Made by a program: the position numbers and the translations under genes. DNA of 64,000 bases, from the NCBI GenBank assembly GCA_030390025.1, contig CM059431.1, forward strand, positions 138,138,001 through 138,202,000, given 5' to 3'. This stretch comes from Squalus acanthias (Eukaryota). This document shows, in pieces, positions 16,331 to 51,830 of the stretch; the first letter of the stretch is position 1, and each line of letters opens with the position of its first letter. Below the pieces are notes generated by a model. That model did not search any database, was not told the DNA's origin, and saw only the letters and a list, made by a program, of their open reading frames with translations.

Positions 16331-16378
16331 GAAATGTTCTACTTTACTGTAGTACAAAACGTGCTGGATTGAAAGGGG

Positions 16379-16480
16379 TTAACTAAAGCTGTTTGTTCAG
16401 TGATTGTAATTAATGTTAGTCTCCACGGTTTAACTGAAGCAGTTTGTTCAATGATTGTAATTAATATCATTCTCCATGGA
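16379..16480 (+). promoter_or_regulatory. About 51-bp tandem duplication in the putative GPCR promoter with TAATTA homeodomain-type cores
   Basis: Two copies of ttaact(a/g)aagc(t/a)gtttgttca(g/a)tgattgtaattaat...ctcca(c/t)gg, 170-270 bp upstream of the ATG. Confidence 0.45.
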
Positions 16481-16617
16481 CCCTAATTGCATCAGTGCAG
16501 GTTTTCCCTCTTTTATTAATAAGGGACTCCTTTCAATGTGTTATCCCATAGTGTCAGTGAGAGCATTACATGCGGCACTAGCAGGGAACAGTGCGCTGCT
16601 CAACAGAGAGTGAGTCG

Positions 16618-16781
16618 GAATCTGAGAATAGTAGATTGGAATGTTGCAACAATGGATCAGAATCTGAGAACGGCAGATTGGAATGTAACAACAATGGATC
16701 AGAATCTGAGAACAGTAGATTGGAATGTTACAACAATGGATCAGAATCTGAGATCAGTAGATTGGAATGTTACAAGAATGG
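16618..16781 (+). repeat. 42-bp coding tandem repeat, about 4 copies (MDQNLRTVDWNVTT)
   Basis: Units start at 16618, 16660, 16702 and 16744; consensus gaatctgagaacagtagattggaatgttacaacaatggatca. Confidence 0.95.
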
Positions 16782-16916
16782 GCAAGAGTTTCTTCTGGGC
16801 GTCTGAAATGTTTTCTGAATATTATGATTATCTATCATTAGCAAGTCAGATCTATTACGCAATTCAAATTATTCAGGGCATTTACTATCCCCTCCTAGCT
16901 GCTGTTGGTGTTGCTG
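16652..16916 (+). CDS. GPR139-like class A GPCR, coding exon 1 (N-terminal repeats plus first half of TM1)
   Basis: ATG at 16652 in ACAATGG context. Reads MDQNLRTADWNVTT...IQGIYYPLLAAVGVA+G and ends at a phase-1 donor G|GTAAGT (16917). Joins exon 2 in frame to give ...YYPLLAAVGVAVNLVTIVILS, a continuous TM1. Confidence 0.85.
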
Positions 16917-17084
16917 GTAAGTCTCTGTATCCAGCTATTAACTCTGTAAACATTTGCATACTGTATTACTATTCTCGGAAGTTACTCGCTCATCTGTACT
17001 GCTGTTGGTGTTCCTGTTAAGTCTCTAAATTCAGCAATTAGATCTGTACACCACGTCTCACTGTATTAATGTGTTTGTCATTTT

Positions 17085-24771: not shown

Positions 24772-25160
24772 ATGCCCTGGGAATCAAGATGCTGGACTAA
24801 GGTGGGAACATGTAACATTGGCTGCTGTGGGAATGAAATTCCTGGACTGAGGTGGGAGCTGTGTAATCTAGGTGGCCCTGGGAATGTAATTCCTGGACTA
24901 AGGCGGGAGCTGTGTAATCTAGGCCGCACGGGGATTGAAGTTCCTGGACTGAGGCAATAATAGTGTTATCTAGGCGGCAATGGGAATGAAGTTCCTGGTA
25001 CGAGACGGGAACAAGGTAATCTTAGTTGCCCAAGGAATTACTTTCCAGGACTGAAGTGGGAGCAGTGTAATCGAGGCGACCCAGGGAATTGAATTCCTGC
25101 ACTGATGTGGGAGCAGTGTAATCTCGGCGGCACTTTGAATTAAATTCCTGAACTGAGGAA
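24772..25160 (+). repeat. Degenerate 51-bp tandem repeat, about 8 copies
   Basis: The ctggact anchor recurs at 24792, 24842, 24893, 24944, 24995, 25046, 25097 and 25148. Confidence 0.9.
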
Positions 25161-25489
25161 GGGTGAAATGTTGTGCATCGCTCACTTTTAATTTAAAGCT
25201 GTGTACAATAATGTGAGCTAGATTGTGTTGCAGTGAAGTGTTGGGGTGACAATGAATCAATGAATCTGTTTCTTCAATGACTGTAATTAATGCCAGTTAC
25301 AATGAGGCCTAATGATGTCACTCGGGGATGTCCATCTGTTCTACATAAGGAGCTCCCTTCAATATGTGACATCACACAATCAGCGCATTGCCTCCAGCAC
25401 AAAGACCACCAGCCTCTCACCGAAGTGATGTCGTGGGTTCCAGGATCTCTAAGGGAAGCATTCTTGAACAGTGGCAGTCAACAAGAATA

Positions 25490-26287
25490 CTTTGGAATAA
25501 CAACAGAAAATGTTGAAAACACTCAGCAGGTCAGGCAGCATTCGTGGAGAGAGAAAGAGTTAACGTTTCAGGTCTGTGACCCTTCGTCAGAACTGAAAAA
25601 GTTTACAGCTGCAACAAATTTTAGGCAGGTGCAAGGGCAGGGAAATTGGGGTGGGGTGGAGGAGAGAACATAATGGTCTGTCTGTGATAGGGTGGAATGC
25701 AGGAGTGGTTAAATGTTGCAAATGTGGATGGGAGAAACATCAACACCTGCCGCCTGAAAAAAATAGGGCGGAATTATGGTCCGAAATTTCGTAACTCATT
25801 GTTGAGTCTAGAAGGATGTAAAGTGCCTAATAGAAAGATGTAGTGCTGTTCCTCGAGCTTCAATGCAGCTTCATTGAACACTGTAAGAAGCCAAGGACAG
25901 AGAGGTCAGAGTGGGAGAGGAGCAGAGAATTAAAGTCACAGGGCACCGGAAGCTCGGGGTCACACTTACGGACTGAACAGAAGTGTTGCGCAAAGCGATC
26001 ACCCAATCTGCATTTGTTCTCCCCAATGTAGAGGAGACCGCATCGGGAGCAGCGAATACAGTATACTAAATTGCAAGAAGTACAAGTGAATTGCTATTTC
26101 AGCGGGAAGCAGTGTTTGGGGCCCTGGACAGTGGGAAGGGAAGAGGTAAAAATGCAGGTGTTGCATCTTCTGCGCTTGCATGGGAAGGTGCCGTGGGGAG
26201 GGGAGGGGCTGTTGGGGGTGATTGAGGAGTGGACCAGGGTGTTGTGGAGGGAGCGGTTCCTTCCGAATACGGAAAGGGGAGGGGAGG
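25490..26287 (-). mobile_element. Penelope-like element 3' fragment (GIY-YIG plus pseudo-LTR)
   Basis: Minus strand translates LVYCIRCSRCGLLYIGENKCRLGDRFAQH at about 26070-25985. Terminal repeat with hammerhead at 25558-25594. Confidence 0.88.
25558..25594 (-). ncRNA. Minimal type I hammerhead ribozyme motif
   Basis: Reverse complement reads AGTT-CTGACGA-A-GGGTC(ACA)GACCT-GAAA-CGT-T-AACT. Confidence 0.72.
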
Positions 26288-26720
26288 ATATACAAAAGAT
26301 TTGCTATCCCCTTCTCCCTTCTGTTAGTCTCCCTAGTAGGTATCTATGTCCAGTTGTTAATTCTATAAACCATGTTACACTGTAATATTATTGTTGATAT
26401 TTACGGTGGCATACTCAGTTATTAATGGTTTTTCTCTGTTTTAAGCTGTTGCATCCTTGTTAATGCAAGAGTTGTTGTTTAAAAAGACTGGCACATCCTC
26501 GCTACTGTTTGTGTCCCTGGTAAGTCGCTGTATCCAGCTATTAATTCTGTAAATCATTTTTAACTGTATTACTGTTCTTGTCATTTACTCCCCCCACACC
26601 CTCTCGCTATTGTTGGAGTCCCTGGTAAGTCTTTGTATCCCGCTAGTAATTCTATAAATCATGTTTAACTGTATTTCTCTCCTTGTCATTCTCCATCCCA
26701 TCCGCACTGCTGTCGACTGT
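26288..26720 (+). pseudogene. Degenerate copies of the GPCR exon-1 3' end and splice donor inside the intron
   Basis: IQKICYPLLPSVSLP at about 26289 resembles IQGIYYPLLAAVGVA. Two further units end ILATVCVP-G|GTAAGT (donor 26520) and PLAIVGVP-G|GTAAGT (donor 26625). Each is followed by sequence similar to tgtatccagctattaactctgtaaa found after the real donor. Confidence 0.75.
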
Positions 26721-27017: not shown

Positions 27018-28336
27018 TTTTCACCTAATTCTCGGTATGGTTATTGACACAGAGTCACAGGAACAAATCCTGGCAGATCATATCCACATCGTTAAATGCC
27101 TGAAATAGCCGCGAATCATTCAGTTCCAGTCAATATCTCCTTTCCCACAATCTCCAGTTCGGCATTAGTGATACTGCTTCTGATGGTTAGAATAGGATTA
27201 CAAGGATAATTTATATAACTCAAAAACGTTCAGTCAGCCATATTTCAATGCGTTTATTTCCAATCTTTGTTTTGAATTTACAATTGGAGCACATGCCCGT
27301 CTGTCACAGTTCAATGGATCTCTCAGTGAGACCCAAAGTTATTCTCTATTGCCTCCTGCTGTACTGCAGGATAAACAATCCCAGCTGATTGTAACTGAAG
27401 TACTGAGGATAAGAAAATCCTTTTCAATTTTCTCGACTAATATTCTCTGCACAAGTTGGAAACCAAAAAGTGAAAAAGTACAAGGATAAATCTCTTCCAT
27501 TTGTGTTCAGATACTTTACGAAAGCTTTCGGCGGCTCGTTGCCTCTGGGATGAGACGCTTAGTTATGATGCTAATAAATGTATTTAGTGGGATATTACCT
27601 GGTCAATGATAACTATTTGTTTTAATTCAGAGTCCATTCTTTGCAATGATATTCGGAAAATCTTCCTTTCAATGAGCCAGACATTGAGTATTTCAACAAA
27701 ACTATAGAAAGCTCAATCTTCAAAACACTTCATACATTCCAATTATCTTTATTACTGCAGTGCACTTGTATTTATTATCTTAGCACTTGCATATTACAAC
27801 CGTACATTTTAAATGCAATTGCCTGTAATTATTGCACGCCACGATTGCAGTTTCAGTATTTTGCCGTTGCACTCATTTTCAGTTCTAAATATAATGGATA
27901 TTCTAACCAGGAGCAGGAATCCAAGCGGGATTTCCCCCTCCTTAAAACAGGGCAACTAAAGCGAATTGCTCCGCTCCAAATGCTGACTGATCCCGGGACA
28001 TGAAAGTTTCCTGAGAGGTTCTGATCATTTGTGCCCCTGGTACCTCGGGCGGTGTTTTTGTCTGCTGGGCTAAAGGTAGATCTACCATTTAATCTCTCAT
28101 GGGCCAAACATCTGTTACATTCATGTTGTACTGAACCCCGTTTCATTTCTTAATTCCACAATGTATTCCCGATTACTATTACAAAAAACCCTTTATTCAC
28201 CTCCACGGACAATAAAATTAGATTATATCAGTGAATGTCGCTAATGAGTTGCAGATTTCTCCCAGAGTTCCTTCAAACTGCAGCTCTTGCTCATAACCTG
28301 GTTTATAATTCTCCTGTTTATGTCCCTTCCTCACAG

Positions 28337-29238
28337 TGAATTTAGTGACGATTGTAATCCTATCTCGGGGAAAGTGCGGTCTCTCCAAATGTGTCACTCG
28401 CTACCTGGTGGCCATGGCAGCGGCTGATCTACTGGTCGTTATCCTCGACCTGATATTGAGGCAGATTCCGATTGTTTATAGTGAACAGTTTCGTTTCATG
28501 CGGAAAATCCCCTTGTGTAATATCCACGCCGTCCTGCTTTATGCAGCCACAGACTGTTCTGTCTGGTTCACCGTCACTTTCACCTTTGATCGATTTGTGG
28601 CCATTTGTCGCCAGAAGCTGAAAACTAAATATTGCACCGAGAAAACGGCGGCTGTGGTTATCGGAACAGTGACTGTGCTGAGCGGTTTAAAGAACATTTT
28701 CTGGTATTTTATGTTCACAGATGGGTATCGGCTTCAGAACCTCCCCTGGTTTTGTGATGTAACAATAGATCTTACGTTTTCACTGGTCTGGGGAGCAATT
28801 GAGTTCCTTCATTATAGTCTCACCCCGGGGCTCCCATTTGTTGTGATTCTGCTGCTCAATGCTCTCATCGTCAGACACATTTTAGTGTCCAGCAGAGCCC
28901 GCAGGAGACTCCGGGGTCCCAGCAGTGGGGAGAGTCAGAGAGACCCAGAGATGGAGAGCCGCAGGAAATCCATCCTTTTATTGCTTCTTATCTCCGGCAA
29001 CTTCATCCTATTATGGATAGTGTTTATGGTGTATTATATATTGAGGCGGATATGGTATTTGTGGACTGTATCTATAATTCTGCCGCATTATCTAAGGGAA
29101 ATAGGATTGATGCTGCAGCTGCTGAGTTGCTGCACAAACACTAGGATTTATGCCGTCACCCAGACTAAGTTCAGAGAGCAGTTGAAAAATGTGGGAAAAT
29201 ATCCCTTTACTCTGATTGTAAAATTAATTAAAGGATGA
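28337..29238 (+). CDS. GPR139-like class A GPCR, coding exon 2 (TM1 end to TM7 and C-tail)
   Basis: Acceptor cccttcctcacAG at 28335-28336, phase 1 (G+TG=Val). Open 300-codon frame with TM1 Asn, TM2 AAADLL, TM3 FTFDRFVAIC, Cys in PLCNIH and WFCD, and TM7 SCCTNTRIY. Spliced CDS is 1167 nt (388 aa); intron is 16917-28336. Confidence 0.92.
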
Positions 29239-29340
29239 TGTGAAGCGGAGACTTTGCAGCCTGAGAGCTCCCTGTGCCTGATATATTGGCGAGCCGTAAT
29301 CGACGGGCCGGGCCGCCGGCCGCGGGGAAGTTTCAGAAAA

Positions 29341-30060
29341 CAAAGATAGCGGCTCCGGCGTACCGCACAAAGATGGTGGACTCGGCGTCCCGTACAATAT
29401 GGTGGCCCCGGCGCCCAGCACAAAGATGGTGGTCCCGGCGTCCGCACAAATATGTAGGCCTCGGAGACCCACACAATATGGTGGCCCCGGCGCCCAGCAC
29501 AAATATGGCGGCCCCGGCGCCTCGCACACAGATGGTAGCCTCGGCGCCCCGCACTAGATGGCGGCCCTGGCGCTACCCACAAAGATGGCGGCCCCGGCGC
29601 CCAGCACAAAGATGGAGGCCCCGGCGCCCAGCAAAAAGATGGCTGCCCCGGCACCATGCATAAAGCAGGCGCCCCCGGGGTCCCGAAAAATTATTTCGGA
29701 TCCGTTGCTCCGCACAAAAATGGTGGAACCAACGGACCGCACAAAAATTGCGGCTCCGGTGCCCCGCACAAAGATGTCGGCTCCGTTGCGCCGCACAAAG
29801 ATAGCTACTCCGACGCCCCTAACAAAAATTGCGGCTCCGGCATCCCGCTCAAAAATGGCGGCTCCGGCATCCCGCACAAAGATGGTAATCTCTGTCACCC
29901 CTAACAAAGATGGCGGCTCTGGCCCCCCTAAAAAGATGGCGGATCTGGCGCCCTTAACAAAGATGGCAGAACTGGTGCCCCTAAAAAATATGGCGGCGCT
30001 TGCGTCCCGCACTAAGATGGCGGCTCTGGGGCCGCATAGCAAAGATGGCGGCTCTGGTTG
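29341..30060 (+). repeat. GC/CpG-rich 27-bp minisatellite, about 27 units, with YY1-like AAGATGGCGGC core
   Basis: Consensus caaagatggcggccccggcgccccgca with period 26-27. Starts about 100 bp after the GPCR stop. Confidence 0.92.
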
Positions 30061-48425: not shown

Positions 48426-49139
48426 ATCCCTCTCATTGTTCAGAGGGGTCGAGCGAGAGTGACCAGGAACACGGGCTCCACAGTGTCTGCCAATCCTAGG
48501 CTGGTCAGGTAGACAGTGGTGGGATTGTGTAAGTAGTTTAATGTAACACAATGTGGGACAATACACTCTGGATTGAAGGTTACAGACTGGAATACAGCGT
48601 GAATATGGAATGACTGGGAGAGGGTCACACGGAGTTCACTCTAGATACAGAAATCACTAAACCTTGGATTCCAGCTCTAAACAATACTCGAGGTCACTGC
48701 AGTTGTTCAGTGAGCTGGAACTCGGTGTGTTGAGCTTGGGACGCCTGTCCCAGGAAGGACAGATTGGCTCTGGAGGGAGTCCGGCTGGAATTGTTCAGGT
48801 TGAGAGCTGAGATGAAGGGACTGAGCTATGATGAGAGACTCGGTTAACTTTAGTTATATTTCCAGGGATAAGTCGGTGGTTTAATTTAATATTCACCCCT
48901 TGTTCTGATTTACCCAGAGTGACAATTCTTCCTCTGTAATATCCTGTCAATTCCCTTCATTGTGATTCTCGAGGGCTGGTACAGAATCTTCACTCTGTTC
49001 GGGCAAACCAGAAAAAGGGGGTGGAATATTAAAATGATAACAAACCCGGTTAAAAGCCGATGAAAAAACGATGTTCCTGTTATTACGGATTCTGAGGCTA
49101 CAGGCCACCCGGTGATACATGACGGATTAATTGTCAGTC

Positions 49140-51830
49140 GTAGATTTATACGCGACACCGCCAAACAGACGAGGCAACGGAACTACGCTGCCTACATGCG
49201 CATCAAGAGCAGGAAGCTTGAGAAACTCGGCGTAACCACCAGCTACAACCAAGCCTCCCCCGGTACCACAGTTGCAACCACAGGGAAGTCCATCGTCAAC
49301 CTGTCGGAGCACACCCTTCAATCAGACGAAATCGAAGTTCTCGCCCTAGGGCTCAAGTTCTGCCCCACCACCAAAATGGACCCCATCGGTCTCGCGGCGG
49401 ACACAGAGGAATTCATCAGGAGAATGAGGATCCGGGAATACTACCACAAATCCCAAGATGTCAGCAACATTCCTAATGGGACAATCAATGATCCGGAACA
49501 GCAGACAGAGGGAACCGCAGTGCTACAACCGAGGAAGAAAGAGTCAAATTGGACCCCTCCGGAGGGTCGCAACCCTAAGCTTGACATGTATGCTCAAGCT
49601 GTCAGGAAATGCATCAACGCCAGATTCATCAGCCATACTCAAGACAGTCCAGAATGTCACCTGAGCACAACGCAACGCCATCCACGCACTCAAGACCAAC
49701 CGCAACATCGTCATCAAACCAGCGGACAAAGGAGGAGCCATCGTCATCCAGAACAGAATGGACTATTGCAAAGAAGCATACCGACAACTGGACAACCAGG
49801 AACACTACAGACAACTACCCGCAGATCCGACCAAAGAACACACCCGCCAACTCAATAGACTGATCAAGACCTTCGATCCAGACCTTAAACATCCTACGTG
49901 CTCTCATCCCATGTACTCCCCGCGTAGGAGACTTTTACTGCCTCCCAAAGATACACAAAGCCAACACACCCGGACGTCCTATCGTATCAGGCAACGGAAC
50001 CCTGTGTAAGAACCTCTCTGGGTACGTCGAGGGCATCCTGAAACCCATCGTACAGGGAACCCCCAGCTTCTGTCGCGACACTACAGACTTCTTGCAGAAA
50101 CTCAGCACCCATGGACCAGTTGAACCAGGAACACTCCTCGTCACAATGGACGCATCGGCACTCTACACCAATATCCCCCACAATGACGGCATCGCTGCGA
50201 CAGCCTCAGTACTCAACACCAACAACAGCCAATCTCCGGACGCCATCCTACAACTCATCCGCTTCATCCTTGACCACAATGTCTTCACCTTCGACAACCA
50301 GTTTTTTACCCAAACACACGGAACAGCCATGGGGACCAAATTCGCACCCCAATACGCCAACATCTTCATGCACAAGTTCGAGCAAGACTTCTTCACTGCA
50401 CAGGACCTCCAACCAACGCTGTACACCAGATACATCGACGACATCTTCTTCCTTTGGACCCACGGCGAAGGATCACTGAAAGGACTACACGATAGCATCA
50501 ACAGGTTCCATCCCACCATCAAACTCACCATGGACTACTCCTCAGAATCGGTTTCATTCTTGGACACACGAATCTCCATCAAAGACGGACGCCTCAGCAC
50601 TTCACTCTACCGCAAGCCCATGGACAACCTCACGATGCTCCACTTCTCCAGCTTCCACCCTAACCACGTTAAAGAAGCCATCCCCTATGGACAAGCCCTG
50701 CGAATACACAGGATCTGCTCAGACGAGGAGGAACGCGATGGACACCTACGGACACTGAAAGACGCCCTCGTAAGAACGGGATATGACGCTCGACTCGTCG
50801 ATCGACAGTTCCGACGGGCCACAGCGAAAAACCGCATAGACCTCCTCAGAAGACGAACACGGGACACAACCAACAGAGTACCCTACGTCGTCCAGTACTT
50901 CCCTGGAGCGGAAAAACTACGCCATGTTCTTCGCAGCCTTCAACATGTCATCGATGACGATGAACACCTTGCTAAGGCCATCCCCACGCCTCCACTACTC
51001 GCCTTCAAGCAGCCGCCTAACCTCAAAAGTACCATCGTTTGCAGCAGATTACCCATCTTTCAGGAGAACAGCAACCAAGACACCACACAACCCTGCCACG
51101 GCAACCTCTGCAAGACATGCCAAATCATGGACACAGATACCATCATCACACGTGAGGACACTACCCACCAGGTACACGGTACATACTCATGTGACTCGGC
51201 CAACGTTGTCTACCTGATACGTTGCAGTAAAGGATGCTCCAGAGCATGGTACATCGGCGAGACCATGCAGACACTGAGACAACGTATGAACGGACACCGC
51301 GCAACAATCGCCAGGCAGGAGGGTTGCCTCCCAGTCGGGGAACACTTCAGCAGCCAGGGGCATTCAGCCTCGGATCTGCGGGTAAGCGTTCTCCAAGGCG
51401 GCCTTCGAGATACACGACAGCGCAAAATCATAGAGCAGAAACTGATAGCCAAGTTCCGCGCTCATGAGGATGGCCTCAATCACGATATCGGGTTCATGGC
51501 ATGATACAGAACGTGACTTGACATCATGGCCGGTCTTCCCAGGTGTTTTTTTTTTTAAAGACTAACACAAGAACCTACACAAATTGACAGGATATGCAGC
51601 CAGCAGGTGGTTTGACACGTTGGACCCCCTGGGACACATCTCATTGTCTTGGCTGTGCTCTTTGATGTAGGGAAAGATGTGAATAGATTTTGTCTGTGTT
51701 TAAATTGTGAATTCTGGGAGATTCTCTCACTGCTAACTTACCTGACGAAGGAGCGAACTGCTCCGAAAGCTTGTAAAATTAAATAAATCTGTTGGACTAT
51801 AACCTGGTGTTGTGCGACTTCTCATTTTTG
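49140..51830 (+). mobile_element. Penelope-like retroelement (RT plus GIY-YIG endonuclease), 5' truncated and frameshifted
   Basis: ORF pieces with PGRPIVSG, LVTMDASALYTNIP, GTAMGTKFAPQYANIFM, YTRYIDDIF and VVYLIRCSKGC...WYIGET...RMNGH. The 3' terminal region contains a hammerhead motif. Confidence 0.95.
51738..51776 (+). ncRNA. Minimal type I hammerhead ribozyme motif (Penelope 3' end)
   Basis: TTAC-CTGACGA-A-GGAGC(GAACT)GCTCC-GAAA-GCT-T-GTAA: stem I TTAC/GTAA, stem II GGAGC/GCTCC, palindromic AGCT stem III. Confidence 0.75.

Follow-up and report, generated by a model that had tools for sequence, protein, structure and literature searches.

A candidate start-codon-spanning coding minisatellite in the first exon of a GPR139-like receptor of the shark Squalus acanthias

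The presence of a tandem repeat at the start of a predicted receptor gene, in which each unit supplies both a start codon in a favourable context and an N-glycosylation sequon, raises the question of whether the repeat is kept because of these features or carries them along as it is copied. A sequence-only reading of the locus proposed that repeat copy number or the choice of start could act as a dial for ectodomain length and glycan load among the alleles and paralogues of an expanded receptor family. The question is addressed here for the repeat at 16618-16781 of the window, by which we mean the whole 64,000-nucleotide stretch of contig CM059431.1 that was analysed and to which all coordinates refer.

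The array has a period of 42 bp, with 3.9 copies, 91% matches and no indels, and it takes the form of a coding VNTR, that is, tandem units of 42 bp, a multiple of three, through which the frame stays open. A 38-nt unit pattern has four matches with 0-3 mismatches, compared with 0 of 100 shuffled controls that have any match. The earlier description of in-frame ATGs with A at -3 and G at +4 is accurate for the positions 16652, 16694, 16736 and 16778, as is that of three NVT sequons, which fall at residues 11, 25 and 39 counting from the ATG at 16652. This context is found at 8.9% of the 2147 ATGs across the window, and because all four of the ATGs lie in copies of one motif, they represent a single event that was copied and not four independent Kozak contexts. 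Unit 0 diverges from the 42-bp consensus at 6 bases, and units 1, 2 and 3 at 3, 0 and 2 (Table 1). The 42-mer is itself a dimer of a 21-mer, with halves that are alike at 14 of 21 bases, and each unit holds a second ATG, out of frame and 11 nt 5' of the in-frame one, which is there because the Asn(AAT)-Val(GTN) codon pair creates it. Unit 0, the out-of-frame ATGs and the dimer structure are additions to the earlier description.

Table 1. Features of the repeat array and of the predicted receptor gene, in window coordinates
Feature	Position	Strand	Description
Duplicated 51-bp upstream element	16376..16477	+	putative family promoter element; 2 copies, 84%
TATA-like TATTAATAA	16514..16522	+	read directly; aligns with TA-rich motif of promoter B
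Unit 0	16610..16651	+	GTG-led; sequon lost (NVA); most diverged; probably 5' UTR
Unit 1	16652..16693	+	first in-frame Kozak ATG; sequon 16682-16690
Unit 2	16694..16735	+	in-frame ATG; sequon 16724-16732
Unit 3	16736..16777	+	in-frame ATG; sequon 16766-16774
uORF ATGs 16641, 16683, 16725, 16767	16641..16841	+	uORFs of 8, 1, 8 and 24 codons
Exon 1A, non-repetitive part	16778..16916	+	fourth ATG, juxtamembrane helix, start of TM1; phase-1 GT donor at 16917
Promoter B and exon 1B	25261..26337	+	short type, broken, within the intron; GTG at start context; donor 26336 weakened
Exon 2	28337..29238	+	remainder of TM1 to stop; intact; AG acceptor ends at 28336

The gene into which the array opens can be reconstructed in some detail. 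Exon 1A as a whole extends over 16652-16916, six of its six conserved columns are intact, and its juxtamembrane helix has a counterpart in the predicted structure of the relative P0002. Exon 2, the sole 7TM exon in the window, is separated from it by an intron of 11.4 kb, and the predicted spliced frame of the two is open over 1167 nt and 388 aa, with GT-AG boundaries in phase 1. Pfam 7tm_1 (PF00001) matches exon 2 over positions 2-260 of its 260-position profile, with an E-value of 3e-21 and a score of 76.5 bits where the cut-off is 30.5, and the exon deviates at 3 of 153 conserved columns, the median among 154 homologues being 5. Class A receptors are marked by an Asn in TM1, an Asp in TM2, a DRY-type motif in TM3 and NPxxY in TM7; here the TM1 Asn, the TM2 Asp and a DRF are present, and TM7 reads NTxIY, the same as the family consensus. 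A second first exon, exon 1B, lies 2.0 kb from exon 2, is interrupted by an insertion of about 790 bp at approximately 25496-26286 and is altered at 3 of its 6 conserved columns. With the nearer exon 1B decayed, the intact exon 2 calls for a different first exon, and exon 1A is the partner proposed because it is the only intact one found in the window; from these features we infer its use as first exon and its splicing to 28337. In a FastTree phylogeny the nearest neighbour of exon 2 is a short-type gene, P0040 (support 0.82), and exon 2 was therefore possibly first partnered with exon 1B; two cassettes may have been joined here into a chimaeric locus with a single exon 2 between them.

Upstream of the array, the 51-bp element is a 70% match to the second promoter at 25261-25367 and is covered by contigs from all four of the related sequencing runs compared (80% threshold). 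The putative TATA-like motif downstream of it would imply a transcription start near 16545, 5' of the array. The reading INK of the TATA-like DNA recurs among unspliced paralogue ORFs; an upstream extension of the protein through this motif, which is open in several of those ORFs, was rejected for the present gene, where it runs in another frame and meets a stop at 16613. Contigs of runs X12 and X21 continue past the donor at 16916 into the intron and are uninformative on expression, and no contig joint or loose end at that donor is found among those listed for four related runs at 80%. Within the 51-bp element (16374-16435) there are TGTTTGTT and TAATTA motifs, which we take to be Fox- and homeodomain-like, and in run X2 the contig depth of the element is about equal to that of the TM1/donor region, which points to a promoter element shared across the family.

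The receptor belongs to a large family. Among 4460 candidates, a search with exon 2 found 2417 proteins at E <=0.001, and every one of the best 120 of these 2417 is a shark model under the name “probable G-protein coupled receptor 139”; identity is 70-79% for nearly all 120, with 79% for the closest protein listed. In the tree the receptor is nested among these proteins, with which it has the repeat and the exon-1 core in common, and paralogues cluster largely by species, as is expected from recent expansion or gene conversion. The assignment, made beforehand, of the array to the N-terminus of a GPR139-like receptor from an expanded family is borne out. RefSeq/UniRef models of shark “probable GPR139” (P0007, P0030, P0002) share the 14-aa unit, the exon-1 core and the TM1 junction with the present gene; they are unreviewed predictions, and none listed is identical to this protein (best 79%). 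The repeat is already plain in public automatic gene models.

How far the name of the family should be trusted is a separate matter. Mammalian GPR139 has a short, non-repetitive N-terminus; the human gene is single-copy, with two exons and an intron in TM1, and its receptor is activated by L-Trp and L-Phe. Human GPR139 is the best match to the shark receptor among solved structures, with only 36.7 bits (E 2.5e-08) compared with about 500 bits for shark paralogues, and because this match is weak the name is a nearest-neighbour label only; the weak score and the size of the family argue for a putative separate subtype over a GPR139 orthologue. Fishes do have further GPR139/142 subtypes, GPR210A/B, according to PMC6504862, in the main text of which the word “shark” is absent, and the main text of PMC11979771 contains no word beginning with “gpr”.

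The number of units varies widely across this family. The 14-aa unit is found in named proteins of eight shark genera, and 99 of 157 homologues have 1-9 units, 29 have none and 29 are without a recognisable exon 1, so that tail length and sequon number do differ from paralogue to paralogue, as the earlier reading had envisaged. One 90% cluster includes paralogues with 8 and with 3 units, and a catshark cluster with 13-residue units has protein lengths of 380, 393, 406 and 406 aa. Of 140 spacings between units, 129 measure 14 residues and 6 measure 13, an in-frame spacing that is partly true by construction, since the homologous proteins are all gene predictions, in which frame-breaking arrays are hidden. 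No RNA run is among those listed as sharing words with the locus; contigs from related animals (best word share 0.29) provide a view of the DNA itself. The 12 of 31 rows listed include four joints between contigs that fall within the array and have a known filler; the net change is exactly 42 bases in three of them, and the fourth nets 83 bases and lies 5' of the ATG remaining in that copy. Summed word depth in run X6 is 451,924-923,854 over 16684-16745 and 16,943 at the donor, compared in run X2 with 61,944 over the repeat and 60,817 at the donor; depth is not copy number, but a difference of this size may point to far longer arrays, or to a satellite derived from them, in organism B.

A whole-library phmmer search with exon 1 gave 74 matches. 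Those that align to both the repeat and the core belong to the family, and many are ORFs of unspliced exon 1; the remainder were rejected as relatives, being unrelated low-complexity repeats. Two diverged forms deserve mention as observations in their own right. P0220, a Logan ORF with 3 members, has four strongly diverged units in frame, with two sequons, Met in none of the units and a Met in the leader; in P0235 a variant acidic unit of 12 residues has been independently amplified at the same position of exon 1.

Translation of the repeat can be assessed from the distribution of Met codons. Of 75 arrays, 16 have lost the Met that follows the last unit, and in 8 of the 75 the repeat supplies the sole Met before TM1; those eight receptors, all among the 16, must start inside the repeat if they are made. 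In a number of paralogue models, among them 6 of the 11 in one cluster, the predicted protein begins shortly before TM1 and leaves the repeat out. At the level of the family, the repeat is probably translated.

If units were kept for the sake of their ATG and sequon, these elements should be better conserved than the residues around them. The unit provides its own controls, because it contains two Asn of one codon type, one of which is in the sequon, and three Thr of one codon type. In a set of 172 distinct translated units from 294 proteins (123 arrays), from which arrays with less than 6/14 identity and truncated last units were excluded, the sequon Asn is retained in 154 units and the other Asn in 147 (p 0.33), and Ser or Thr is present at sequon +2 in 127 units, the corresponding counts for the control Thr being 132 and 131 (p 0.52). 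Arrays without a sequon number 16 of 123, where 17.5 are expected under independent loss. Internal Met is retained in 78 of 91 units (86%), Trp in 90% and Asn in 91-93%. These counts lend no support to a dial in which units persist on account of their ATG and sequon, neither being better conserved than neighbouring residues, with the qualification that tests on related predicted proteins have limited power and that weak selection could be missed.

One comparison had pointed the other way: the sequon is retained in 13 of 24 units before the first Met and in 144 of 182 translated units in the raw counts (p 0.011). This apparent loss of the sequon in units like unit 0 was rejected as a signal, since it vanishes once duplicates are collapsed (13/23 against 93/127, p 0.135; 26/43 against 118/172, p 0.37). 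Ser is the commonest replacement at sequon +2, accounting for 15 of the 60 changes among distinct units, but in the first set it traces to only six genes. The first duplicate-collapsed counts, like the 75-array counts above, exclude P0003 and P0008, which have 13-aa units and are out of register, as well as truncated last units. Asn-Ile replaces Asn-Val in 26 of the 172 distinct units, and many positions of the unit accept Pro or Gly. Taken as a whole, copy number looks like tolerated variation and not like the outcome of selection on single units, and an adaptive dial is possible but unsupported.

The structural character of the encoded segment was evaluated on a relative with eight units, P0002, for which an AlphaFold2 model (73-row alignment) places residues 1-113 at a pLDDT of about 30 and gives them no secondary structure; a helix and then the 7TM bundle come after them. 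The repeat is predicted to be an unstructured N-terminal tail, low pLDDT on a repeat being weak evidence of disorder, and the term “ectodomain” used for it previously is overstated, given that the repeat is predicted without a fold in P0002. A Pfam search of exon 1 found no domain, a search of the ESM Atlas with P0002 residues 1-113 gave no usable match, and no hydrophobic leader is visible in the exon-1A translation. Depending on which of the four in-frame ATGs is used, 77, 63, 49 or 35 residues precede the YYP motif of TM1, with 3, 2, 1 or 0 sequons.

The explanation that we prefer, with a probability of roughly 0.65, is that the array is a start-codon-spanning coding minisatellite whose first ATG is the one used, and that it encodes a tail without structure, probably glycosylated and of a length that is tolerated. 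The course of events that we infer, from the mutational mechanism through transcription start and splicing to start-codon use and glycosylation, would be the following. A 21-bp motif, consisting of an ATG and six codons and ending in ACA, would have been doubled to 42 bp, and slippage or unequal exchange would then have added and removed 42-bp units in the members of a large tandem gene family. Since the start codon, the A at -3 and one Asn-Val-Thr all lie within the segment that is copied, each copy would bring with it a Kozak ATG and a sequon, and the extra ATGs and sequons would be by-products of the copying. In the scanning model, most ribosomes are captured by a strong first ATG, and scanning ribosomes would most likely initiate mainly at 16652, producing the 388-aa receptor; the first 42 residues of the 77-residue stretch before YYP would form the unstructured tail with three sequons. 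Copy number would then determine tail length and possibly glycan load, both of which would differ between paralogues.

A rival account is that the array does not encode protein at this particular locus. Exon 1A could have been orphaned by the deletion of its own exon 2, or the transcript could start in or after the array, either of which would leave the repeat as 5' UTR or dead DNA, and several observations are of the kind that such a history would leave: there is one exon 2 in the window, 2.0 kb from exon 1B and 11.4 kb from exon 1A, its tree neighbour is of the short type, unit substitutions include non-conservative residues, much as in neutral DNA, and the repeat is omitted from several paralogue models, as noted above. 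We nevertheless consider a non-protein array unlikely, because it is exon 1B that has decayed while exon 2 is intact, exon 1A retains its frame, its donor and all its conserved columns, the TATA-like motif is situated about 130 nt 5' of the first ATG, and eight paralogues have a Met in the repeat only. It is very improbable, on the other hand, that the repeat forms a folded module, a coiled coil or solenoid that binds a ligand or oligomerizes the receptor. The 7-residue sub-period in the unit, with hydrophobic residues at 4-3 spacing, and the precomputed Pfam match of P0001 to PF07889 are what recommend this idea, and they are opposed by a P0002 model in which residues 1-113 have pLDDT below 50 and no secondary structure, by the tolerance of Pro and Gly, and by the occurrence of 13-residue units.

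A functional dial, in which copy number or start choice tunes the receptor and uORF diversion followed by re-initiation generates a ladder of N-termini, is a more serious proposal, which we judge to be rather improbable all the same, as we do its extension to a rheostat serving hundreds of shark receptors, in which each unit adds 14 residues, a glycan and an ATG pair and the number of units sets the amount of surface receptor. Each in-frame ATG is preceded by an out-of-frame one, a uORF geometry suited to re-initiation, and this must be set against the origin of the out-of-frame ATG as a by-product of the Asn-Val codons, which must disappear in Asn-Ile units, and against the scanning model, under which the strong first ATG should take most ribosomes. 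The start-dependent lengths straddle the range in which tails that lack a signal peptide become difficult to translocate, so that unit number could set the surface level, the commonest tail class is that of one unit (49 residues, 16 of 61), followed by 63 residues (12 of 61), and copy number turns over rapidly among near-identical paralogues. Flanks shorter than about 50 aa are described as using Oxa1-family insertases and long GPCR N-domains as usually having a signal sequence (PMC13220792), and long or structured N-tails as not being translocated by EMC (PMC10155758). It also counts against a dial that internal ATGs and sequons are not preferentially retained and that internal units of the catshark arrays are often Val-led and without a sequon.

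With the minisatellite as the preferred reading, the locus can be compared with known systems. The DRD4 12-bp VNTR lies in the extracellular N-terminus, where it contributes four residues in one or two copies and does not include the start codon. Like the shark repeat it is a coding repeat of variable length within the first exon of a class A GPCR (PMC11592377); it concerns one gene, while the shark repeat belongs to a family. Zebrafish NLR-B30.2 genes likewise have lineage-specific N-terminal repeats in several hundred genes that undergo gene conversion (PMC4852459), and differ in that the units are of about 30 aa on their own exons, in cytosolic proteins and with no sequon. A search of the literature outside subscription journals and supplements found no paper describing the shark family or the repeat. 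Variable-number coding repeats as such have precedents; the expansion of shark receptors with a start-codon-spanning repeat is, within that search, previously undescribed.

The significance of the repeat is modest, in that its special features, the ATG and the sequon, show no sign of selection. It does mark a very large receptor family in cartilaginous fishes, animals described as having a relative paucity of GPCRs (PMC8455134). Anyone expressing or de-orphanising these receptors will need to consider that the choice of start codon alters tail length and the number of glycans. In addition, the occurrence of 0-9 units on near-identical receptors constitutes a natural test series in which N-tail length and glycans can be related to insertion and surface delivery without a signal peptide.

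Several other features of the window may be recorded. Duplications of about 100 bp, comprising the end of exon 1, the splice donor and the start of the intron, trail both first exons (16999-17051, 26498-26585 and 26603-26690), with a strong GT donor preserved in two copies. An array with a 51-bp period and 7.5 copies at 24777-25158 lies directly 5' of promoter B, and no copy of it was found 5' of promoter A. A GC-rich 27-bp array of 26.5 copies at 29340-30052 begins 100 bp past the stop, and its unit holds a start-like motif, AAGATGGC. Long ORFs at 49064-51504, with reverse transcriptase and a GIY-YIG-like end, presumably belong to a Penelope-like element, and the remaining window is mostly CR1/L2/RTE-like debris.
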